A stretch of 64,000 nucleotides of DNA, taken from positions 160,001 to 224,000 of the forward strand of contig CAWEMM010000009.1 of the NCBI GenBank assembly GCA_963810095.1, written 5' to 3'. The stretch is from an uncultured Chloroflexia bacterium (lineage in GTDB: Bacteria > Chloroflexota > Anaerolineae > CG2-30-64-16). The stretch's first letter is position 1. Each line of letters starts with the position of its first letter. Shown in pieces: positions 3,705 to 64,000 of the stretch. Position numbers and translations under genes: made by a program. The notes beneath the pieces are model-generated. The model had not been told where the DNA came from, made no database searches, and saw only the letters and a program-made list of their open reading frames with translations.

Positions 3705-4793
3705 ATGGCGAACAACGATACGTACGAGATTGATCCGAACACACTCCAACCCCAGCTCACCCAGGCGCGGGTGCCGCTGGATGAGGCGGGCGATGCATTG
3801 ATGGTGCGCGATGCCAGCGGCCGCATTCCTATCGTGGTGATACCGAAGCGCACCAGTCGGGTGAACCCCTGGCTGGTCCTGGCCGGCGCGGCCGCCATCG
3901 TGGCGGGCGCAGTCGCGACGGCCAACTACGATACGGCGCTGTGGGTTGGTATTGCGCTCCCCGCCGGCGCCTTATTGATCTTTTTTGGCCTCTTCCAGGC
4001 GTTCAGGGTGATGGTGCCCGAGGGTGCGAACGCCCTGTTGTTGCGCGGGGGCAAGTACTACAAGACGCTCGACAGCGGCATGCACTGGGTTCTGCCCTAT
4101 TACCCGGTCTCGCACCTGATCACTCGCCGCGTCATTCCGTTCGATGTGCCCGCCTATGTCAGCCCCACGGGTGACAATGTCCCGGCCACAGTCGACACGC
4201 TGGTCATGTTTCATATTGCGGACCCCTACAAGTTCGTATACCGAATCTCGGCCGACGACTTCGATCACGTCTTTCTCGCGGCCTGCCAGGATGCCTTACG
4301 CCAACTGGTGCGCTCCATCCCCTGGCACGACGTGCTTAACCTGAGCCAGGCAAGCACGGCCACCCTGCGCGCGGCTATCGCCGCCGACGTCGACGACTAC
4401 GGCGTCGAGGTCGACAGGGTCAACATCACCTATGCGGCGCCCCCCCTGGACTTCATGAAATCACAGGAGATGCGCGAGCTCTGGACCGTGCAGAAGGCCG
4501 AGGTGGGCCAGCGCCAGTTGCTCGAGGTGGAGCGGGTGGAGCAGGAAGCCGCGGCGGAGGCGCTCCGCCTTCAGAGGCTGCAGGAGCGGCTCGAGCACTT
4601 CCCCGAAGCAACCCGGTGGGAATGGGAAGGCGTCAAGCTCGAAGTGGCCCGCTCGCTGGCCGGCAACACCCGGGCGTTTGTACAGCTCGGCGAAGGCACC
4701 GATATTGCGCGGGCGTTCGTGGCTTCTGAGTTGATGGCTGGCAATCGGGTCGAGGATGCCGCGCTGGCGGCGAGCAAGATTCCGGCGGAATGA
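3705..4793 (+). CDS. SPFH/band-7 domain membrane protein
   Basis: Two TM helices, then VPEG..LL.RGGKY.KTL.SG.HW and DDYGVEV.RVNI, followed by a coiled-coil tail. AGGAGG RBS. Confidence 0.85.
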   Translation: MANNDTYEIDPNTLQPQLTQARVPLDEAGDALMVRDASGRIPIVVIPKRTSRVNPWLVLAGAAAIVAGAVATANYDTALWVGIALPAGALLIFFGLFQAFRVMVPEGANALLLRGGKYYKTLDSGMHWVLPYYPVSHLITRRVIPFDVPAYVSPTGDNVPATVDTLVMFHIADPYKFVYRISADDFDHVFLAACQDALRQLVRSIPWHDVLNLSQASTATLRAAIAADVDDYGVEVDRVNITYAAPPLDFMKSQEMRELWTVQKAEVGQRQLLEVERVEQEAAAEALRLQRLQERLEHFPEATRWEWEGVKLEVARSLAGNTRAFVQLGEGTDIARAFVASELMAGNRVEDAALAASKIPAE

Positions 4794-52662: not shown

Positions 52663-54089
52663 TCAACCTTCCAGGAGCAAGGCTTCGGGGTCTTCAATCA
52701 GCGTTTTCAGCCGCACGAGGAATTGAACAGCCTCGCGCCCGTCGATCACCCGGTGGTCGTAGCTTAGTGCGACATACATCATGGGCCTAATACCCACCTC
52801 GCCATTCAGTGCGACAGGCCGCTGCTCGATCTTGTGCATGCCGAGGATCGCCACTTGGGGCGGGTTGAGGATGGGCGTGCTGAGCAGCGAGCCGAAGACG
52901 CCGCCGTTGGTGATCGTGAACGTGCCGCCGCGCAGGTCCTCCAACGACAGGGCGCCGTTCCGGGTCTTCTGCGCCAGCGCCTCGATAGCTTGCTCGATCT
53001 GCGCAAACGTCATCCGGTCCGCGTCGCGCACCACGGGCACCACCAGCCCTTCTTCCGCGCCGATGGCGATGCCGATATCGTAGTAATGCTTGAGCACCAG
53101 CTCGTCACCCTGCAGCTCGGCATTCACCTGGGGAAAGGCCTTGAGCGCGCCGATGCTGGCCTTGACAAAGAAGGACATGAAGCCCAGGCCCACACCGTGG
53201 TGTTCCTTGAACGATTCCTTGTGCTTCGCCCGCAGCGCCATCACCGCGCTCATGTCGAGCTCGTTGAACGTCGTCAGCATGGCGGCCGTCTGCTGTGCCT
53301 CCACAAGCCGCCGGGCGATGGTCTGCCGCCGGCGGGAGAACCGCACGCGTTCCTCCGGCCTCCCAGATGCCCCCGCCCGAACGCGGCCTGAGGCCGGGTC
53401 GAAGGTGGGGCGGACGCAGGCGCCGGCTGCGCCTCCGTGGGTGCGGCAGCTCGCGGCGCTTCGGCGGCGGGACGGGCCGCCGGTTCTGCCCGCCGGCTTG
53501 CAGCGAACGCCTCCACGTCCTCGCGCGTGATCCGGCCGGATGGCCCGGCAGGGACCTGGGAGAGGTCCACACCGAGCTCGTCGGCGACCCGTCGTGCCAG
53601 GGGGCTGGTCTTGCCTTCGTCACTCTGCGGCGCCGCGCTCCCGGTTACTGCCGGCGCCGGCGTATTCGCCCGAGCGGTTTCTCCTTCGACTGCCGCGGCT
53701 GCCTGCGCGGTGGCTCGTCCGGCCGGCACCCGGTCCCCCTCGCCGTCGCCGCGGCCGCCTTCGGCCGGCAAGGTCGCCAGGGTGGACGACTTTGCCTGAG
53801 GTGGTTCGGGTGGCGCTGCCGCCCCGCCCGCCGCTTCAGGCTTGCGGCTGCCGGCCGGTTCGATCGAGCCGAGCACTTCGCCCACGCGCACATCCTCGCC
53901 TTGCTGCCGTAATATATTGCCGAGCACGCCATCGCCCTCTGCGCTGACCTCGACATCGACCTTGTCCGTTTCGAGGCGCACGATGGCTTCGCCCGTCTTC
54001 ACCGCGTCCCCTTCGGCCTTTAGCCACTCCGCGACCGTCGCCTCCACCACAGACTCGCCCAACTCGGGAACCCGTATCTCACTCGCCAT
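52663..54089 (-). CDS. sucB: 2-oxoglutarate dehydrogenase E2 (dihydrolipoamide succinyltransferase); frameshift near 53370
   Basis: Lipoyl domain VPELGESV...LETDKV, binding domain SPLARR...GRITREDV, and catalytic [14 protein letters not shown]. Confidence 0.95.
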
Positions 54090-54143
54090 CTCAGCCCTCC
54101 TCCCCCTGTGCCGCCGATAACTGTATTCCACCCAACGAAGAAC

Positions 54144-56946
54144 TCATTCGCCAAAGGCCCGCTGGATCAGCGCATTCTGGTTCACGACGTGCCACGCGGT
54201 CGACCCTTCGGAGGGACTTGACGCGCGCGGCCGGCCAATGTACCGCACGGGCGGCTCGCCGCGCCCGCACCCACCGAGCAGGTCCTGCAGCTTCGGCCGG
54301 ACAAAGTCCCACGCGCCCATGTTCTCGGGTTCTTCCTGCAGCCAGACGACCTCTTCGACGCGGCCGTAACTCTCGATCAGGGACGCCACCTCTTCCGTTG
54401 GGAACACGTACAATTGCTCGAGCCGCGCAATAGCGACGTCGGCATGTTCGTCGCGCTGCTTCGCCGCGGCCAGGTCGAAGTAAACCTTGCCGCTGCACAG
54501 GATGAGGCGTCTCACTGCCTCCCGGCGGTCCGACGCCAGCGCGTCGTCGATCACGGGCTGCCAACGCCCCTGCGCCAAGTCGGCCAGGGTGGAGGCCGCG
54601 GCCGGGTTGCGCAGCAGGCTCTTGGGCGTCAGCACGATTAGCGGCAGCGGGTCTTCGCCCAGCAGCGCGGCCTGCCGGCGTAACAGGTGGAAATACTGGC
54701 TCGCGGTGCTCGGGTAAGCCACCCGCATGTTCGTTTCAGCCGCGGCCTGCAGGAACCGCTCGACCCGTGCGCTCGAGTGATCTGGCCCCTGGCCCTCATA
54801 GCCGTGGGGCAGCAGCAGCACGAGCGACGGCGTGTGCCCCCACTTCGCGCGGGCCGACACCAGGTACTCGTCGATGAGTACCTGCGCGCCGTTGATGAAG
54901 TCGCCGTACTGCGCCTCCCAGATGACGAGGCGCGAGGGGTCATAGGTGCTGTACCCGTACTCGAATCCGACCAGGCCGGCCTCCGAGAGCGGGCTGTTGT
55001 GGATCTCGAACGCGGCCCGGGCCTGGGGCAGCGCCTGGAGGGGGATGAACTTGGCCCCGTTCGCCACGTCGTGCCACACGGCGTGCCGGTGGCTGAACGT
55101 GCCCCGCTCGACGTCCTCGCCGGTGAAGCGGACTGGCGTTCCGTCGCACAGAATGGATGCCAACGCCAGCGACTCCGCCGTCGACCAGTCTACGCCGATC
55201 TCCGCCTCGGCTGCGGCGGCAAAGGCTTTCCTGCGCCGGTCGAGCACGCGTGACAGCTTCGGATTGACGCTGAAGCCTTCCGGCGCGGACAGCAGCGCAT
55301 CATTCAGGGCCCGCAGCTCGGCTGCGACGACGGCCGTCGGCGCGCGTTTGGCGGCACCCCTTGGCGGCGCGGCGGGAGGCTCCTCGTCCACGTCACGCTC
55401 GGGCTGCAGCGCATTCGCCACCTCCTGCAGCTCGGCCAGGCGTGCCTGCAGCATCTCTTCGGCCCGCCCGGCCGGCAGATCGCCCCGCCGCGCCAACTCG
55501 CTGGCCCACAGGGTGCGCACGCTTGGATGCCCGTCGATGGCCTGGTACATAAGCGGTTGCGTAAAGCTGGGGTCGTCGCCCTCGTTGTGCCCGTAGCGGC
55601 GGTATCCCACCAGGTCGATGAGGAAATCGCGCTCGAACTCGTGCGCGTAGGCGTAGGCGATGCGCGCGGCTTCGATGCAAGCCTCGGGATCGTCGGCGTT
55701 TACGTGGATGACGGGGATCTTGAAGCCTTTGGCCAGGTCGCTCACGTACAGGGTGCTGCACACCTCAGGGCGCAGCGCGGTGAAGCCCACCTGGTTATTC
55801 GCGATGATGTGGACGGTGCCCCCGGTCCGGAACCCCTCCGTGTTTTGCAGGTTGAGCGTCTCGGCGACGATGCCCTGGCCGGGGAACGCAGCGTCGCCGT
55901 GGATCAGGATGGGCAGCACGAGCCGGTCGTCAAGCCGAGGCGGGCCGGGCTGGTCCACTTTGCTCATGGCCGCCCGGGCCATGCCCTCGACGATCGGGTT
56001 GACGAACTCCAGGTGCGAGGGATTGGCGACCATCGATACCTCGACATTGACGGCCTCGCCCCCTCGCAGCGCGCGGCGCGCACCCTTGTGGTACTTCACG
56101 TCGCCGGTCCAGCCCAAGTCGTCCCGGATCATCCAGTGCTGGCCCTCCAGCGGGTCCTTGAACTCCGCCAGGATCTGCACATACGGCTTGTTGAGCACGT
56201 GGGCCAACACGTTCAGCCGCCCGCGGTGCGCCATACCCAGAAAGATCGACGGCACGCCGGCCTCGGCGGCCTCGCCAATGATCTCGTCGAGGATCGGAAT
56301 CATCGTATCCAGGCCCTCGACGGAGAAACGCGTCTTGCCGGGATAGAATTTCTGAAGGAACTGCTCGAACGCCTCGACCTGGGTCAGCCGGTCGAGCAGT
56401 GCCAGGGGATCGATGGGGTCTTGCGGGGGACGGAAACGGCCCGACTCGACCGCATCGCGCAGCCAGGCGCGCGCCTCAGGATTGCGGAGATGCGCAAAGT
56501 CGAAGCCGAGGTGCGACTGGTAGACGCGGCGCAATCGCTCGATCGCCTCCAGCCCGTTCGCCGCCTCGTCGCCAAGCGGCCCGCCGACCAGGTGCGGGGG
56601 CAACGCCTCGAGGTCAGCCTCGGTAACGGCGTGGCTTGCCAGGTCGAGGCTTGGGTCGCCGGGAAGCGGGGAGCCCAGCGGGTCGATCTGCGCGGCCAGG
56701 TGGCCGTAGTCACGGATGGCGTTGGCGAGATTGACCAGGCCCATCACGGTTTCGTTGCAGGGGACGGCGATCGGGCCGGCAGCGTCCCGCTGCCTGCCCT
56801 GCGTCGACCCGTGGCGCAGGCGGGGCGAGACGGTCAAAGGCCTCTCGGGTGGCCGCGTCGACCGAATTCGGGTCGCGTACGTAACGCTCGTACAGCTCTT
56901 CGACATAAGCCGCGTTCGGGCCGGCAAACTCAGTCCAGATATTCAT
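54144..56946 (-). CDS. sucA: 2-oxoglutarate dehydrogenase E1; frameshift near 56800
   Basis: GPNAAYVEELYERY..DPNSVD, KTRFSVEG, GMAHRGRLN, GDVKYH, HGDAAF.GQG, RGTFSHRH and WEAQYGDF.NGAQ. Confidence 0.96.
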
Positions 56947-57085
56947 CGCTTCTCTCGGCACTTCAATCAAAACACGAGAGCAGAATATCCGGTTTATGGT
57001 AGAGGTTCTGTAAGGGGATGATCAGTAGGGGCGAAACGGCCCGCCCGGCTCACTCCTGGCGGGCCCTGGCATTGTGGAGAGCGGC

Positions 57086-57884
57086 TCAATACCCCCGCAG
57101 ATCCGTACTCGAGCGGCGAGGCAGGCCTTCCTTCGGCGTTCGCTTCAGCACCACGTACTCGATGCCGTGTTCGGCACAGAAGGCGCGCTTCTCAGGCTTG
57201 TCGCCATCTTCGTTCACCGCGTACATGTGCGGCCGGATCAGCGCGATTTCGGGTTCGGCATCCATCCACCCCATGCCCGAGGTGACGAGTGAGTGCTTTA
57301 CATAACGGCACGAGCCGACCACGTAACGGCGCTCGTCCTCGGGGAAGAGGGGATGGCCCTCGCCCTTGAGCAGGCGGACGTTGGCGTCGTGCCCCACCAC
57401 CACGTATAGGTCGCCAAGCTGCGAGCATTCCTCGAAGAACCGCACGTGCCCCGAGTGGAACCAGTCGTAGCATCCGGTGACGACGACCCGTTTCCGGTCC
57501 GGGATCCATGCGCGCAGGATCGAACTGGGCGGCAGGGAAGCCGGCCAGCTCCTCCGGCTCGATGACTTCCAGCCCCAGGCCGTGGCGCTGGCAGAACGCG
57601 CGCTGCTCGGCGGTGTCTTCGCCCGCGCGCACCACCCACTGCGCCGCAGTTGCTATGGCCCCGGGGTCGACCGGCCAGGTCAGCACCTGGTCGACGAACC
57701 GCACCGCCTCCAGCACGTAACGCCGTTCGTCGAGCGGGAACTTGCAGCTGACGTTGGCCTGCTGCACCAACTCGTCGGGCCAGAGCGCCACGCTGAGAGG
57801 GCCGCGCTTTGCCGCTGCTTCCAGAAAGCGGATGTGGCCCGAACGCAAGTCGTCAAAAGCGCCCGAAACGAAGACTTCGCTCAA
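57086..57884 (-). CDS. Tandem cytidylyltransferase-like (HIGH) nucleotidyltransferase; frameshift near 57490
   Basis: Domain 1 VSGAFDDLRSGH (degenerate HxGH); domain 2 VTGCYDWFHSGH...ERRY...RSSTDLR. The TTG start overlaps the upstream TGA. Confidence 0.8.
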
Positions 57885-58696
57885 CTTTCCCTCCGCTCTT
57901 CCGTCGTCCGCTCTGCCGCGGCCCGCACCCGCACCTGGAAGCCGCCCGGCACCGGGTCCTCCGACACGACATACAGGTACCCCCCGCCGCAGCCCGAGTA
58001 CATGGCGCCCGCGTACGCGCGCCTGGTAGTGCGCCAGCAGCGCCATCAGGTCGACGGCGATGGTCGGATGGCGTACGACGTGTGGGAGCAGGGTTTGCCA
58101 GCAGCGCATCGTTTCGTTCATCGACTCGGCCAGCCCGCGGCGTCACGGGCTACGATTGCCGCGTAACAATCCTTGCCCGACTGCCCGAGCCGCCGCACCC
58201 ACGCCGCGTCGAGGTTTTGTATACCCAGGGGGCTGTACCCCGGCAGACGTTGGACGACCGGGACCATCCAGATCACCTGCTCGAGCCACCGCGCCACCTT
58301 GGGCTCGTTGCACGATTCGACGTGACACGGAAACCACCCGCCCTCGACCTCACTGTCGTAGTCCAGCCGGTTGACGCCGGGGTAGATGAGCCCTGCCATG
58401 TCCTGCGAGCCGCTGGGCTCTGGCTTGCCAGCGTTCTCGGCCTGGTAAAGCTCGCGGACCAAGTCTGCCGGGTCGCGGCCGGGAAGCTGGGGACCCCACA
58501 GCTGAGCGGCCACGTTGCGCGTGCTCGTCCCCATGCCGCAGCGGTCCATGAAGCGCACGGTGGGCTCGATGTTGACGACGACCATCGAGCCCGGCGCGTC
58601 AGGATTCAGCCGCGAGACGAAAGGTTGGTCGATCCAGCCCCCCGCAAAAGCCATGCGATAGGGGATCTTGCCGATGATATCGGCGATATCGGGCAT
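57881..58696 (-). CDS. Divergent GHMP-family sugar kinase; frameshifts near 58130 and 58020
   Basis: IPYRMAFAGGWIDQP, CGMGTST, SGSQD and YSGCGGGYLYVVS correspond to the GHMP motifs. Confidence 0.7.
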
Positions 58697-58708
58697 AGCT
58701 CCCTCATG

Positions 58709-58741
58709 AGAAACCTGGTTTCTGTCAGAAACCAGGTTTCT
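58709..58741. repeat. Double palindrome AGAAACCTGGTTTCT-gtc-AGAAACCAGGTTTCT
   Basis: Read directly; each 15-mer is self-complementary around its central base and the pair forms a perfect inverted repeat. Confidence 0.75.
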
Positions 58742-58759
58742 TAGCCTCAATGGTTGTGC

Positions 58760-59809
58760 CTAAATGTGATCGGTGACGACCTGCTTGCCGGCCTTCCGGT
58801 CTTCGTACTGGCTCTCGATCCACTTGAAGGTCTTTGCCATGCCTTCGCGCAGCGGCGTGCTCGGCTCCCAGCCCAGCACCTGCTTGATGAAGGTATTATC
58901 GCTGTTCCGGCCGGCCACGCCCTTCGGCGCGGTCGGATCGTAAGTGCGGTTCAGCTTGGCCCCCGCGATGTCCTCGACGATGCTCACCAATTCGTTGATC
59001 GACACAAGTTCGCTCGACCCGAGATTGATGGGCGTCGCGAGCAGTTCGTCGCAGTGCGTGATCATGTCAATGCCATGGACGCAGTCGTCGATGTACATGA
59101 AGGAGCGGGTCTGGGTGCCGTCGCCCCAAATCTCGATCTCGTACTTGCCCGTGTCCTGGGCTTCAACCACCTTGCGGCACATCGCCGCCGGCGCCTTCTC
59201 GCGGCCGCCGTACCACGTCCCGAGCGGTCCGTAGACGTTGTGGAACCGGGCAATGAAGGTCTTCATGCCGCGCTCGGCGGTGTATTCCTGGCAGACCATC
59301 TCGGAGAACAGCTTCTCCCAGCCGTAACCGCGCTCGGCCATTGCGGGATAGGCGTCCGATTCCTTGAGCGCGCGCACGTTCGGGTCTTTCTGAAGCAGCG
59401 TATTGTAAGCGCATGCGGACGAGGAATAGAAGAAACGGCGCACGCCGGCCCGATACGCGGCCTCGGTCATGTGCATGCCAATCAGGACGCTGCGCATACA
59501 CTCGATGCGGAAACGCTCGATGAACCCCATGCCGCCCATGTCGGCGGCGAGGTTGTAAACCTCGGTCGCGCCCTCGCAGGCGCGTACGGCGTTTTCCCAT
59601 TCGCTCACGTCCAGGTTGAGCGACTCGACCCCCGGCACACGCTGATACCACTGGTACAGCGGCTTCTTGTCGACCGCCCGGATGCGGGTGTAGCCGAGGT
59701 CATGGAAGTAGCGGGCGAGCGCGCCGCCGATGAAGCCACCGGCGCCGGTGATGACGATCAACTCGTCCGGGGCAAGGTCACGTTGGATGTTCGGATAGGA
59801 CTGAGCCAT
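58760..59809 (-). CDS. GDP-mannose 3,5-epimerase-like NAD-dependent epimerase
   Basis: GAGGFIG, NLAADMGGMGFI, SSSACAY, YGWEK, GGREKAPAAMCRK, IWGDG.QTRSF and GVAGRNSDN are GME-type signatures. Confidence 0.88.
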   Translation of the reverse strand: MAQSYPNIQRDLAPDELIVITGAGGFIGGALARYFHDLGYTRIRAVDKKPLYQWYQRVPGVESLNLDVSEWENAVRACEGATEVYNLAADMGGMGFIERFRIECMRSVLIGMHMTEAAYRAGVRRFFYSSSACAYNTLLQKDPNVRALKESDAYPAMAERGYGWEKLFSEMVCQEYTAERGMKTFIARFHNVYGPLGTWYGGREKAPAAMCRKVVEAQDTGKYEIEIWGDGTQTRSFMYIDDCVHGIDMITHCDELLATPINLGSSELVSINELVSIVEDIAGAKLNRTYDPTAPKGVAGRNSDNTFIKQVLGWEPSTPLREGMAKTFKWIESQYEDRKAGKQVVTDHI

Positions 59810-59852
59810 TAGATTCTCCCTTGAGTGGTTCTGATAACGCAAGTTAGTATTC

Positions 59853-59923
59853 ACCACAAAGGCACCACGGCACCACGTTCACAAAGTTCTTCCTGTGCCT
59901 TCGTGTCTTCGTGTCTTTGTGGT
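59853..59923. repeat. Short palindromic element with 8-nt internal repeats
   Basis: ACCACAAAGGCACCACGGCACCAC...TTCGTGTCTTCGTGTCTTTGTGGT; ends are inverted. Confidence 0.6.
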
Positions 59924-59927
59924 TCGT

Positions 59928-60941
59928 TCAAGCTCCCCTGCAAACAGGCCCGGTGGAGCGGCGGACGACGAGCTCCGTCGGCAAGACGATTTCGGTTGGC
60001 TCCGCCGGCCCGCCCTTTTCCAGCCGCTGCAGCAACAGCTCGGCCCCGCACCGGCCCATCTCGTAGGCAGGTTGGCTGGCGACGGTCAGGAACGGATCGA
60101 GAATCAGCCCATCGGGCAGGTCGTCGAACCCGGCAAGCGAAATGTCGTCTGGCACGCGCAAGCCCGCTTCGCGCAGCGCAGCGAACGCGCCGATCGTGAT
60201 GAAGTTGTTGGTCGCGAAGAGTGCCGTCGGCCGGGGCGTGAGCGCGAGCGCCTGCTGCGCCATCGCCTTCCCGCTGAGGGTCTCGGGCTTGCCATAAAGC
60301 ACCCGGGCCGCGTCAAAGGCCAGCCCGGCATCCAGCATGGCGCGCCGCGCGCCGGCGATGCGATCGACCGCCACTGAGGCGTCTGGCGCTGCGCTGAGAA
60401 CGGCGATGTCGCGGTGTCCCAACTCGACGAGGTGGCGCACCATGGCATACGCCCCGCCTTCAGAATCACAGCGGACGGTGTCGACCGGCGCGCCGGCAAT
60501 GCGGCGATCCAGGATCACCACTCCGACGCCGCGCCGGCGGGCCAGGTCGGCCGCCTGAGACGACGACGCTGCGGGCACCAGCAGCAGGCCGTCCACCTGT
60601 TTCTGCAGCAGCACCCGAACGTGGGCCGCCTCTTCCTCTTCCGACTCGTCGGTGTTGCAGAACATCACCGAGAATCCCTGGCTGCTCGCGGCGTCCTCGA
60701 CGCCACGCGCCATCGTCGTGAAGAATGGGTTGCCGATGTCTGTGAGCACGAGTGCCAGGGTGTGTGTCCGCTTGACGTGCAGGCTGCGTGCGAGTGCGTT
60801 TGGCACGTAGCCGAGCTCGACGACCGTTGCCATCACGCGGTCGCGCACCTCGGGGCTGGCGTACCCAGAGTTGTTGATGACGCGCGAGACGGTCATGGTC
60901 GAGACGCCGGCCTTGCGGGCCACGTCGGAGATGGTGCTCAT
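59928..60941 (-). CDS. LacI-family transcriptional regulator
   Basis: TISDVARKAGVSTMTVSRVIN, YVPNALARSL, NPFF and VPDDISLAGFDD. Confidence 0.96.
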   Translation of the reverse strand: MSTISDVARKAGVSTMTVSRVINNSGYASPEVRDRVMATVVELGYVPNALARSLHVKRTHTLALVLTDIGNPFFTTMARGVEDAASSQGFSVMFCNTDESEEEEAAHVRVLLQKQVDGLLLVPAASSSQAADLARRRGVGVVILDRRIAGAPVDTVRCDSEGGAYAMVRHLVELGHRDIAVLSAAPDASVAVDRIAGARRAMLDAGLAFDAARVLYGKPETLSGKAMAQQALALTPRPTALFATNNFITIGAFAALREAGLRVPDDISLAGFDDLPDGLILDPFLTVASQPAYEMGRCGAELLLQRLEKGGPAEPTEIVLPTELVVRRSTGPVCRGA

Positions 60942-60949
60942 TGTCTTGC

Positions 60950-60977
60950 TGTTACGGATAACATGATATGGATAACA
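60950..60977. promoter_or_regulatory. Tandem LacI-type operator candidates
   Basis: Near-palindrome TGTTACGGATAACA (60950-60963) and related TGATATGGATAACA (60964-60977), immediately upstream of the LacI start. Confidence 0.55.
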
Positions 60978-61084
60978 TACCATGTCTTCCGTCCTGTGTC
61001 AAGAGTGGGGTGAGGTTAAGGAGCGTTTCTCCATGAGGTCCACCGCGCCCTTCCGGCACGCTGTCCGAAAGCGGAATAGGCGCG

Positions 61085-62218
61085 TCAGACCGAGTCGAGA
61101 AGGGCCCAGGCTTCGCGGGCCATGACCGCCTCGAACGGGTCAGGCATGGGAGCATCCGCGCCCTGGCTGACCGCGCTCGCGCCACCTCGGGCAATTTCGA
61201 GGTTGCTCATGACCAGGCGGAACAGGCCGATCCGAAGGGCTGCACCGGCCGCGAAGCCGAAGCGCACCTGCTGGGCATCGACACGGCAGCCACTATCGCG
61301 GAGGCCGTCCACGTAGGATTGGAAGAGGCGGTCGGCTACTTGTTCCGGAGGCGAGGCAGTGAGGCTGCTCTGGGCGCCGAGGGTGAGTTGGCCCAGGTCG
61401 CTGCCGAGCGGTTCGAGGCCCACGAGCGCCCAGTCGAGGGCAACTGTCTCTTCTTCTCCGCCCGGCCCCAGGCGCGATACGAGGTTGGTGGGGTAGGTGT
61501 CACCATGACTGAGGGCCAGTGGCAATGTGTCGAGCCGGGCGAGGAAGCGATCGCGGGCGGCAAGCATCCGACGAAACGGATCGGCCTCGCCCCCAGGATA
61601 CCGGGCCGCGACCAGCGGGTGATCCCAGGGGATGTCCTGCAACTCGGGCGTCGCCAGCCACTGCCGGTGCCGCTCGCGGCTCAACCAGGGATAGGCCGGC
61701 AATCCATCCCCAGACGAATACAGGCCGTTGAGCCGGCCCAGATGCCGGGCGGCCAGGGCGTACCGATCGAGGGACCAGCCGGTGCTCTGTGCGGAGCCAA
61801 GGTCTTCCAGCCATAGCGCTGCCATGTCGCCCGGCAAGTCAACGGCCTCGTAGCAACTGGGGGCAGCGAGCCCCGGTGGAAGAGAATCAAGGAGGCCCAC
61901 CCGGTAGGCCAGCACCTCGCGGCGCCAATAGTTCCAGTGCCCCTGGTTGTCCCCCTCGCCCATGTTCGTCCAGCCGGAATTGGCCGGGGACTGGATCAGC
62001 TTCAAGATCACCGACCACGGCAAGTCGCGGGCGCCGTCATGTGCGGTGCCTTCAATGCGGTAGACGCCAAGGCTGACCGGGTTCCCAAAGCCTCCGCCGA
62101 GCTGGCACACATGCCAGTCGGTGACTTGCAGGTTAGCGAGGTGCAGCGACTTCCTGACGACCGGCTTGAGAGTGGACTCGTCCAGGGCCGATAAGATGGG
62201 GGGAAGGGAGTTCGTCAT
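61085..62218 (-). CDS. Phosphotransferase (APH/choline kinase-like)
   Basis: VILK, WRREVLAY, LWLEDL, LSHGDTYPTN and ALDWALVG. Confidence 0.82.
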   Translation of the reverse strand: MTNSLPPILSALDESTLKPVVRKSLHLANLQVTDWHVCQLGGGFGNPVSLGVYRIEGTAHDGARDLPWSVILKLIQSPANSGWTNMGEGDNQGHWNYWRREVLAYRVGLLDSLPPGLAAPSCYEAVDLPGDMAALWLEDLGSAQSTGWSLDRYALAARHLGRLNGLYSSGDGLPAYPWLSRERHRQWLATPELQDIPWDHPLVAARYPGGEADPFRRMLAARDRFLARLDTLPLALSHGDTYPTNLVSRLGPGGEEETVALDWALVGLEPLGSDLGQLTLGAQSSLTASPPEQVADRLFQSYVDGLRDSGCRVDAQQVRFGFAAGAALRIGLFRLVMSNLEIARGGASAVSQGADAPMPDPFEAVMAREAWALLDSV

Positions 62219-62362
62219 GCTCAATCTTTCTCCTGCGCCCTCGCTGCCAAGGTAGGGCAGCGAGTTCGGAACGGTAACACGAGTGATATACAAACGCAAG
62301 AGCAAACCACGAGGGCGCGGTGCGGGAGGTTTTGGAACACGAAGGCTCGAAGGTTGAAGGAG

Positions 62363-62414
62363 AGCACGAAGCGGGAAGTGCGCGAAGCACGAAGCGGGAA
62401 GTGCGGGAAGCACG
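62363..62414 (+). repeat. 23-bp tandem repeat, about 2.3 units
   Basis: AGCACGAAGCGGGAAGTGCGCGA / AGCACGAAGCGGGAAGTGCGGGA / AGCACG. Confidence 0.7.
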
Positions 62415-62659: not shown

Positions 62660-64000
62660 TCAGCAGCTTGCGATCACTCGCCGGAAGAACTCCACGCAGC
62701 GCGGGCGCGTGGTGGTCAAACATAAAGAGCTCCCGCTGCCGCCAGGTGTTTTGCTGCACCTGCGCCAGCCGCGGACCGGTCGCGAATCTGCTCGCCCAGG
62801 TCGTGGATGTCTTTGAACAGGAACCCGGTTTCCAGGCGCCGGACGACGGTCTGGGTGGCGACGATGGACCCCGTGTTGTCACCCTGAAGCTGGGGCACGC
62901 CGCTGACCGCCAGCGTGGCCAACCGGGCCGGGATGTTCAGATCGTCCCAGTTCGAGCGGCGGATTTCGCCCTGATTCTCGCTCTTGAAGAAGTGCAGCCA
63001 GCCGGCGTCGTATTGGCTGAACTCGGCCAACCAGCGGTCCTGGCTGACGTTTGCGTGAAGGTGTAGGTGGCGCGGCGCCAGGCTCCCGGCCTTCTCGATC
63101 CACTGCTTCCATTGGCCCTGGGTGAAGTCGCCGTAGAAGTGCAGGTGGATGCCCTCGCGCGCCAGTTCCTCGACCGTGTGAGGGTGAAGGCCGATGGGCC
63201 GGCCCGGCACCACCGTGTGGATTTCGCCGTCTTGCTCCGACAGCCGCGGCGAACGCTCGCCGAGGAACCAGTCCTGTTTGGGCAGGTCGCCGTCCAGCAC
63301 CAGCACGGGCCGGCCGTCGTCCTTGATCCCAGGCAGCACGGTCTCCGTCCACTGCTGCATTTCGTCCGAGCAATAGATCAGGGCGTCCGCCCCCCGGTAC
63401 AGGTCGACCATCTGCTGCCAGTGGCCCTTTTCCAGGGAGATGAACGGCCCTTCCTTGTAATGCCAGACGAACGGAATGCCGGGGTTCGCTTTCAATACCT
63501 CGTGGCAGAACGGCACGGCCTGCCAGTTGAGCAGCGCGTAGATCACGTCAGGCTGCAACTCGCGCACGGCCTGCTGCCAGTTCTCGCGCGGCAGGTCCTT
63601 CACATGCCCGAAGGCCAGCGGACCGACCGCGTTATACCAGTACGGCTCGTCCATCCACAGGCCGTACAGCTCGTGCCCGAGCTCCTCCAGCGCCATCACC
63701 CGGTCCGCGTTATAGGCCAACTCGCCCACTAGCAGGATCCTGAGGCCGTCGGGTGCCCGCGGCGTGTCGGGCCGCGAGGTGTAGCGGGCGTACTGCTTCT
63801 CTTCGTCGATGAAGTTGCCGACCGTGGTATGGAAACGCAGCGGGCCCTTAACGTCGTAATACTGGCGGTAAGGCATGATGCCCCCCACCGGCTCGCGCAC
63901 GATCTTGTGTCGCTGACGGGGGTGGTCGACCCATTCGCAGGTTAGCTGGCCGGTGTTCACGAAGGCGCCGCGCGCCCGCAGGCGCGCCCACATCATGCGC
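62660..64000 (-). CDS. Glycosyltransferase-like protein, 5'-partial; frameshifts near 62770 and 62700
   Basis: LRILLVGELAYN, PDVIYALLNW and FSQYDAGWLH (GT-B-like). True end probably HAPALVEFFRRVIASC-stop at 62660. Confidence 0.65.

Follow-up and report, generated by a model that had tools for sequence, protein, structure and literature searches.

The window, as we call the whole 64,000-nucleotide stretch analysed here (positions 160,001 to 224,000 of contig CAWEMM010000009.1, from an uncultured Chloroflexia bacterium), carries within 61002-57086 four co-oriented minus-strand genes, which code for a LacI-family repressor, an orthologue of GDP-mannose 3,5-epimerase (hereafter GME), a short fucokinase-like GHMP kinase and a tandem nucleotidyltransferase of the HIGH (cytidylyltransferase-like) fold. 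We propose, with moderate confidence, that these genes form an autoregulated operon that assimilates a free sugar shaped like L-fucose, most likely L-galactose, by way of nucleotide sugars. The initial annotation of this DNA had already noticed the four co-oriented genes and the overlap between the kinase stop and the transferase start, both of which we recover (TGA at 57883-57881 against TTG at 57884-57882, in GTTGA), and had suggested rare-sugar salvage under LacI control; the logic of that suggestion fits all the tests that we ran, and what we infer from context is which sugar is used, which nucleotide carries it and which way the flux runs. The initial annotation knew of no characterised pathway with this combination of enzymes, and our searches of open-access papers and bioRxiv likewise found no description of a bacterial L-galactose or GDP-L-galactose kinase/transferase pathway.

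In the scheme that we favour, the short kinase would phosphorylate the anomeric hydroxyl of L-galactose to give beta-L-galactose 1-phosphate, and domain 2 of the transferase would add GMP from GTP to give GDP-L-galactose and pyrophosphate, domain 1 serving as a non-catalytic pseudo-dimer partner. The GME orthologue would then epimerise C3 and C5 to yield GDP-D-mannose, and a ManC-type mannose-1-phosphate guanylyltransferase (encoded on another contig of this genome and, in roughly one relative in four, within the operon itself) would run in reverse with pyrophosphate to release mannose 1-phosphate and GTP, for a net conversion of L-galactose and ATP into mannose 1-phosphate and ADP. The equilibrium between GDP-L-galactose and GDP-mannose favours GDP-mannose, and the glycans of plants, algae and microbes release L-galactose along with L-fucose.

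By its sequence, the epimerase qualifies as a GME orthologue in which every catalytic residue is kept, and activity on GDP-mannose and GDP-L-galactose is predicted for it. The GME signatures claimed earlier stand: the protein matches the plant GME structures 8sg0/2c59 at E 2.3e-84 and keeps the catalytic Cys (in SSAC), the YGWEK motif (Tyr-x3-Lys) and the Lys of GREKAP, three sets of columns that are invariant across 8 aligned epimerase orthologues and paralogues. Orthologues 72-74% identical to the window's protein occur in Planctomycetota, Acidobacteriota, Verrucomicrobiota and Latescibacterota, and its scores with the heptose_epim model (44.7 bits, cut-off 274.6) and with galE (56 bits, cut-off 262) fall below the thresholds. 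GME is an extended short-chain dehydrogenase/reductase, for which PMC8787198 gives a Ser/Tyr/Lys triad and a C145/K217 acid-base pair in the Arabidopsis enzyme. According to the portions available of PMC6678494 and PMC8787198, plant GMEs serve ascorbate and cell-wall synthesis, and the one characterised bacterial GME, MfGM35E of Methylacidiphilum fumariolicum, has a proposed role in lipopolysaccharide, with no link to a kinase or to salvage in those portions. The window's epimerase is orthologous to both by sequence and catalytic residues, but unlike them it shares a LacI-controlled operon with a kinase and with a transferase, and this setting suggests that it would work in the reverse, assimilatory direction.

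As a reference for the reading frames we used the intact orthologous operon of a relative in the same family (locus L015), which codes for LacI, a 345-residue epimerase, a 276-residue kinase and a 285-residue transferase. Neither the window's kinase fragment nor the intact 276-residue orthologue has a Pfam match (the gathering score of GHMP_kinases_N/C is not reached), NCBIfam does not recognise the protein, and phmmer returned just two short, weakly matching Fkp-like motifs, one at each end. The GHMP fold is seen in an AlphaFold2 model built from 27 family members (predicted local distance difference test score, pLDDT, 91.7), which aligns with the heptokinase WcbL at Z 22.3 (root-mean-square deviation 2.9, 238 residues aligned), with the fucokinase domain of Fkp at Z 20.4 and with galactokinase at Z 19.8, galactokinases and mevalonate kinases occupying the range Z 15-20; on this model the kinase appears nearest to the anomeric sugar kinases (WcbL, Fkp, galactokinase). 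The canonical GHMP motif II is of the PxGSGLGSS type. Here the 27 aligned members conserve a variant phosphate loop, R-[CS]-G-[ML]-[GA]-T-S-T-R, which reads RCGMGTSTR in the window, as the initial annotation had it (CGMGTST), together with PYRxxLAGGWxDQP, SGSQD, SGxGGGY and, as glycine-rich motif III, SGCGGGY / GAGGGGY.

The kinase family is large and nameless. Searched for among 5.8 billion proteins, it yields over 7,247 kinase clusters, counted at 90% identity, and those listed are all unnamed or "hypothetical" and without a Pfam domain; 50%-identity representatives gave 674 matches, and a look-up in a protein atlas returned unnamed clusters only, some of them with GHMP domains. Among distant members, eight of the ten tested have an N-terminal cytidylyltransferase-like domain fused to the kinase (distant members with such fusions include L045 3439-4596, L070 5563-6717 on the minus strand, P0139, P0140, P0145, P0167 and P0233), and some carry two such domains; one fused member adds an L-rhamnose mutarotase domain and another a nucleoside-phosphorylase domain, P0199 has a GT2 domain instead of the cytidylyltransferase-like one, and only P0233 matches GHMP_kinases_C (1.3e-6). 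Fused paralogues match the Fkp model of NCBIfam at 3.6e-17 and 3.2e-12, and in two loci a transferase-kinase fusion adjoins a second GME paralogue. These fused relatives give the impression of an entire family of compact enzymes for L-sugar activation.

The transferase has two tandem domains, of which the first is degenerate, as had been claimed: it reads FDDLRSGH, having lost the first His of HxGH, whereas domain 2 reads CYDWFHSGH. Domain 1 is probably a structural partner only, since across 18 orthologues its HxGH positions are free to vary and HSGH is invariant in domain 2 alone. The intact orthologue matches PF01467 in two stretches (1.1e-16, 61.7 bits against a threshold of 21), and the window's own domain-1 open reading frame (ORF) scores 16.9 bits with the same model, under the cut-off. 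A model of the transferase (pLDDT 87.2) finds human ethanolamine-phosphate cytidylyltransferase (ECT) as its whole-length match (template-modelling score 0.75), while the matches of the individual domains are HldC, TagD and an RfaE-II-like protein of Thermoplasma, HldC being 30% identical over one domain. With the heptose-1-phosphate adenylyltransferases HldE (domain II) and HldC it shares the HIGH fold and, presumably, a phosphate ester as substrate, HldC being a precedent for a sugar 1-phosphate, and with ECT (PDB 3elb/4xsv) the two tandem HIGH domains in one chain. It differs from ECT in that domain 1 has lost HxGH, whereas a HMMER alignment shows an HxGH-type motif in both ECT domains, and from all of them in scoring under the family cut-offs (rfaE_dom_II, TIGR02199, its best NCBIfam match, gives 98.3 bits against 181.5) and in the motifs of domain 2, GWMDAEPE, NEDGD and KRxPKxGLPxRxST, which are its own.

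A survey of gene neighbourhoods, which the initial annotation had called for, finds the three enzymes in tight company. Related loci span at least five phyla; gene order was counted in the 80 best out of 565 related loci, drawn from species-representative genomes, where the epimerase gene lies directly upstream of the kinase gene on the same strand in 63 of the 76 loci with room for it, the transferase gene directly downstream in 61 of 73, and both flanks are so occupied in 55 of 69. Closer to home, 12 of 41 relatives of this genome (kin rather than independent cases, several of them incomplete) have the kinase; of those 12, 11 also have the orthologous epimerase and 10 the transferase, and none of the three was found in the other 29. 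The commonest partners are LacI (24/80 loci, 22/37 in Chloroflexota, so that homologues are not confined to loci lacking the repressor, an outcome that the initial annotation had named as fatal to its view) and, downstream, a ManC-type guanylyltransferase (24/80; 20/62 where there is 3 kb of room). They are followed by an RbsD/FucU mutarotase (13/81), a CUT2-type sugar ABC importer (9/81), a GH29 alpha-L-fucosidase (6/80), L-fucose isomerase (FucI, 5/81) and a class II aldolase (3/81). Three further neighbours each appear in single lineages, namely an MFS transporter, an FGGY kinase and, in Verrucomicrobia loci, a GH95-like gene, and housekeeping neighbours that are specific to a lineage (DAHP synthase, pantothenate kinase and others) were counted as synteny noise. 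LacI control, the importers, GH29, FucU and FucI indicate the use of an external sugar, and these are sugar-utilisation loci, not heptose or capsule loci.

The repressor belongs to the LacI/GalR family by its N-terminal helix-turn-helix, its periplasmic-binding-protein-like sugar domain and its operator consensus TGKTAWCGWTAMCA, the operators of this family being palindromes with a central CG. It matches PF00356 at 2e-19 and Peripla_BP_1/3/4 in addition, and it stays under every NCBIfam equivalog cut-off, the best being RbsR (241 bits against 531). The ORF finder lists the start of lacI at 60983; the start that agrees with the homologues is the ATG at 60941. Orthologues 58-70% identical to this protein adjoin the epimerase-kinase-transferase triad in relatives. 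The lacI promoter (10/12 matches) is the only promoter-like site within 56900-61150, and TTGACA with an A/T-rich -10 box is found at the same place in relatives. The tandem operator-like sites of the initial annotation are present at 60977-60964 and 60963-60950, each with two mismatches to TGKTAWCGWTAMCA, and overlap the -10 box. At the same offset a locus from the same genus (L018) has a perfect 28-bp palindrome, and in relatives palindromes of the ATGGTAWCGWTACCAT type come directly after the lacI promoter, often two in tandem. A site with at most two mismatches was found in 12 of 15 lacI upstream regions against 0.11 in shuffles, a count that is partly circular because the pattern was derived from those same regions, and also in 4 of 14 lacI-epimerase spacers. 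Across the window, TGKTAWCGWTAMCA at up to three mismatches is not enriched (7 found, 4.9 expected); the support for the window's operators comes from their position and from the relatives. The operon is most likely autoregulated from one promoter, because the operator sites overlap the lacI promoter at the very offset of the relative's palindrome. The spacer between lacI and the epimerase gene is 119 bases long, and a terminator candidate there (59874-59861) is within chance expectation and was dropped.

A search of the genome with TGKTAWCGWTAMCA gave 11 sites at no more than one mismatch. Four of these, in L104-L107, were followed and two (L104, L105) could be placed; no regulon member was gained, as the placed sites in L104 and L105 (~3973-3986), as well as one in the window at 1069-1082, lie inside long ORFs. 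There the word TGGTATCGTTACCA encodes the conserved WYRYH peptide of MalT/LuxR-type regulators, and its recurrence can mislead anyone who searches this genome for operators.

Table 1. Features of the operon, with positions in the window.
Feature	Position	Strand	Remarks
Sigma-70-like lacI promoter	60974..61002	-	TTGACA, 17 nt, TATGTT, TG extension
Two tandem LacI-type operator half-palindromes, TGTTATCCATATCA and TGTTATCCGTAACA	60950..60977	-	overlap the -10 box and the transcript start
lacI-family repressor gene	59928..60941	-	337 residues from ATG 60941
GDP-mannose 3,5-epimerase orthologue	58760..59809	-	349 residues
REP-like double palindrome, AGAAACCWGGTTTCT x2	58709..58741	.	between the epimerase and kinase genes
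Short fucokinase-like GHMP kinase	57881..58696	-	~271 residues; frame breaks near 58139 and 58016
Tandem cytidylyltransferase-like (HIGH) nucleotidyltransferase	57086..57884	-	frame break near 57504
Transferase domain 1	57884 to ~57531		degenerate
Transferase domain 2	57499-57089		catalytic-looking

The system with which the operon is best compared is the Leloir pathway in its Isselbacher (pyrophosphorylase) form, in which GalM, GalK, a UDP-sugar pyrophosphorylase, GalE and a UDP-glucose pyrophosphorylase act under GalR/GalS, of the LacI family. Both have a mutarotase (here in some loci), an anomeric kinase of the GHMP family, a sugar-1-phosphate nucleotidyltransferase, an epimerase of the short-chain dehydrogenase/reductase type, a second pyrophosphorylase that frees a common hexose 1-phosphate, and a LacI-family repressor. 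The carrier in the window's operon, however, would be GDP rather than UDP, and the substrate an L-sugar; a GME-type enzyme would epimerise both C3 and C5, where GalE acts on C4; the kinase has about 100 residues fewer than galactokinases and is not recognised by the Pfam GHMP models; and the transferase has the HIGH fold, not that of GT-A or HIT enzymes. The operon would thus work like the Leloir pathway without being a member of it, having neither a GalT-type (HIT) transferase nor a GalE C4-epimerase. The other close likeness is with Fkp of Bacteroides fragilis (PDB 5yys, 9iip, 9iit), which has a fucokinase-type anomeric kinase (20% identity in the structural match given above), shares motifs at the N-terminus and the GGGY loop, and proceeds to nucleotidyl transfer. 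The Fkp model PRK13412, whose cut-off is 721 bits, gives the window's kinase 11.5 bits and matches residues 19-40 alone, and the intact 276-residue orthologue has no PF07959 (Fucose_pyrophosphorylase) domain, so that the kinase is not a member of the Fkp family; the transferase is a separate HIGH-fold protein instead, and an epimerase is attached. The module is widely conserved and follows a pathway logic that is already known, but with enzymes that are uncharacterised and non-orthologous; the window's copy is an ordinary member, LacI-regulated and with a clear operator.

Several observations weigh against assimilation of L-galactose, and we set them out together. The assignments of sugar and nucleotide are guesses from context, and the closest characterised relatives of the transferase use ATP (HldE/HldC) or CTP (ECT, TagD), not GTP. 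ManC is missing from 56 of the 80 loci and from the window's operon; no importer adjoins that operon, and our search found no GH29 in the genome, which is not proof of absence because the genome (a metagenome-assembled one of 16 contigs) is 88.5% complete. The top structural match of the kinase is the heptokinase, about 2 Z above Fkp. The same genome also has a canonical Fkp-like gene (with Fucose_pyrophosphorylase and GHMP N/C domains, which the assembly splits between two ORFs that overlap) directly upstream of a second GME paralogue (L108 6057-10193; G000:C6:1625056-1629192), and the two sets may divide the labour between them. This paralogue shares 45% identity with the L015 epimerase and 47% with that of the window; the Cys/Lys catalytic pair is present in it, and paralogues similar to it are found in many relatives. 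Because the Fkp-like gene adjoins the second GME, the theme of a fucokinase-type kinase, a nucleotidyltransferase and a GME-type epimerase occurs twice in this genome, and the two copies use unrelated transferase folds. Lastly, the genes past lacI would suit an anabolic role, and the frames of the kinase and transferase genes are mended by single low-depth public contigs, possibly of other strains, which leave the break near 58016 uncovered.

The first of the alternatives is that of anabolic salvage, in which free L-fucose or L-galactose is turned into a GDP-sugar for glycans and the epimerase balances the pools of GDP-mannose and GDP-L-galactose for glycosyltransferases. Its enzymatic logic equals that of Fkp in Bacteroides, glycosyltransferase and Glf genes do lie just past lacI in this genome, a distant kinase member (P0199) is fused to a GT2 domain, and one locus has a GT21 gene upstream. 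We nevertheless think it unlikely: the conserved neighbours of the 80 loci include no glycosyltransferases, and those next to the window's operon are not conserved even within the genus; the signs of external sugar use given above speak against it, and the adjacency of ManC fits an exit to mannose 1-phosphate.

A second alternative would make the route specific for L-fucose, passing from L-fucose 1-phosphate through NDP-L-fucose (the nucleoside-diphosphate sugar) to a 6-deoxy analogue, either GDP-D-rhamnose or a mono-epimer. FucU, GH29, FucI, the class II aldolase and the FGGY kinase are classic L-fucose genes, and the kinase is similar to the fucokinase domain of Fkp. However, we know of no onward metabolism of GDP-D-rhamnose in a catabolic setting, ManC suits mannose and not 6-deoxymannose, several loci already carry FucI/FucK/FucA, and the canonical Fkp-like gene is present in the same genome, so that we regard this route as decidedly unlikely.

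It could also be held that the operon is a decaying pseudogene cluster in this strain and that its three frameshifts, which fall within 700 bases of assembly, are real. Compared with the intact L015 orthologues, the kinase gene is out of frame from ~58139 to ~58016, where two stops are passed, and the transferase gene shifts frame near 57504; moreover, the operators are more degenerate than those of relatives, and the missing GH29 would agree with decay. Against this, Logan contigs from four freshwater-sediment runs, aligned to 56900-59000, remove two of the three breaks. One contig of run X4 has an extra C behind 58139 (with 2 other differences in 262 bases, depth 3.2), and another from the same run lacks one base at 57504 (10 other differences in 268 bases, depth 4.1), the two being 99% and 96% identical to the assembly. 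With these variants applied, the kinase reads in a single frame over residues 5-242 of its L015 orthologue and the transferase over residues 4-285, and the protein text is fully conserved when read across the breaks. None of the public runs is RNA, and no run holds more than 0.19 of the sampled words. We think that the three breaks are likely, though not proven, to be assembly errors rather than gene decay, because near-identical public contigs remove two of them, and we go no further than "likely" because both contigs are shallow (depth 3-4) and could stem from sister strains. The repair of the frameshifts that had been called for at the outset is thus probably moot. The neighbouring sucB (53274-54131) and sucA (54144-56970), downstream of the operon, also look frame-broken from their ORF translations, with a typical SucA N-terminus in the ORF 56970-56710 and the body in a different frame, and with the end of the sucB ORF seemingly out of frame; these apparent breaks suggest an assembly that is error-prone and prone to indels. 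We accordingly consider real decay of the operon very unlikely.

The last alternative, ordinary heptose or mannose activation for lipopolysaccharide or capsule by an HddA/WcbL-like kinase, an HldE/HldC-like adenylyltransferase and an epimerase, an outcome that the initial annotation had itself set against its own proposal, would account for WcbL and rfaE_dom_II as the top matches of kinase and transferase and for the likeness to HldC, but is highly improbable, given that the rfaE_dom_II score is far under its cut-off, that the epimerase is a GME orthologue and not HldD, that no GmhA-/GmhB-type gene was found among the conserved neighbours annotated (part of the neighbour clusters), and that the loci are of the sugar-utilisation type under LacI.

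The surroundings of the operon call for a few remarks. Upstream of lacI, at 61085-62413 (minus), lies a 442-residue ORF without a Pfam or NCBIfam match, whose HGDxxxxN-type motif resembles that of aminoglycoside/sugar phosphotransferase-like kinases, followed by a GT4-like gene; neither has a match in the eight related loci that were compared. The GT4-like gene belongs to a glycan-synthesis set (GT4-like, GT2, GH1-like, aldo-keto reductase, UDP-galactopyranose mutase and GT1) at 62716-63996 of the window and L101 1-5574 (G000:C9:224001-229574). Elsewhere in the genome, a third GHMP kinase (L109 5542-6645, G000:C12) has canonical Pfam N and C domains, adjoins an MFS transporter and is weakly related to the kinase family, whose profile it matches at E 4e-11. 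The perfect double palindrome AGAAACCTGGTTTCT-GAC-AGAAACCAGGTTTCT that separates the epimerase gene from the kinase gene belongs to a family of REP-like (repetitive extragenic palindromic) repeats and is not specific to the operon: its 15-mer has 152 sites in the genome, often paired 3 bases apart, against 0 for the reversed control, which rules out an operon-specific operator or attenuator, and its borders, 58709 and 58743, are where public contigs whose flanks are unrelated stop.

If L-galactose is indeed what the operon consumes, it would represent a new way for an L-hexose to enter central metabolism and the first catabolic role for a plant-type GME, and it would explain why soil and sediment bacteria conserve this enzyme so well, with 72-74% identity between phyla. 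Rather more tentatively, we suggest that at least five phyla possess an undescribed, GDP-linked catabolic route of the Leloir/Isselbacher kind, leading from L-galactose to mannose 1-phosphate and relying on two uncharacterised families, for which we propose the descriptions of a minimal fucokinase-like GHMP kinase of ~265 residues and a pseudo-dimeric tandem HIGH-fold sugar-1-phosphate guanylyltransferase. Two abundant "hypothetical" families (for the kinase more than 7,000 clusters at 90% identity, none named among those listed) would thereby gain a function. The need for the synthesis of L-sugar nucleotides is stressed in the review PMC8787198, and a compact kinase and transferase would be of use in producing GDP-L-galactose and L-sugar nucleotides akin to it, which are expensive as reagents. 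The window's locus is in addition a warning, in that its frameshifts are probably assembly errors.

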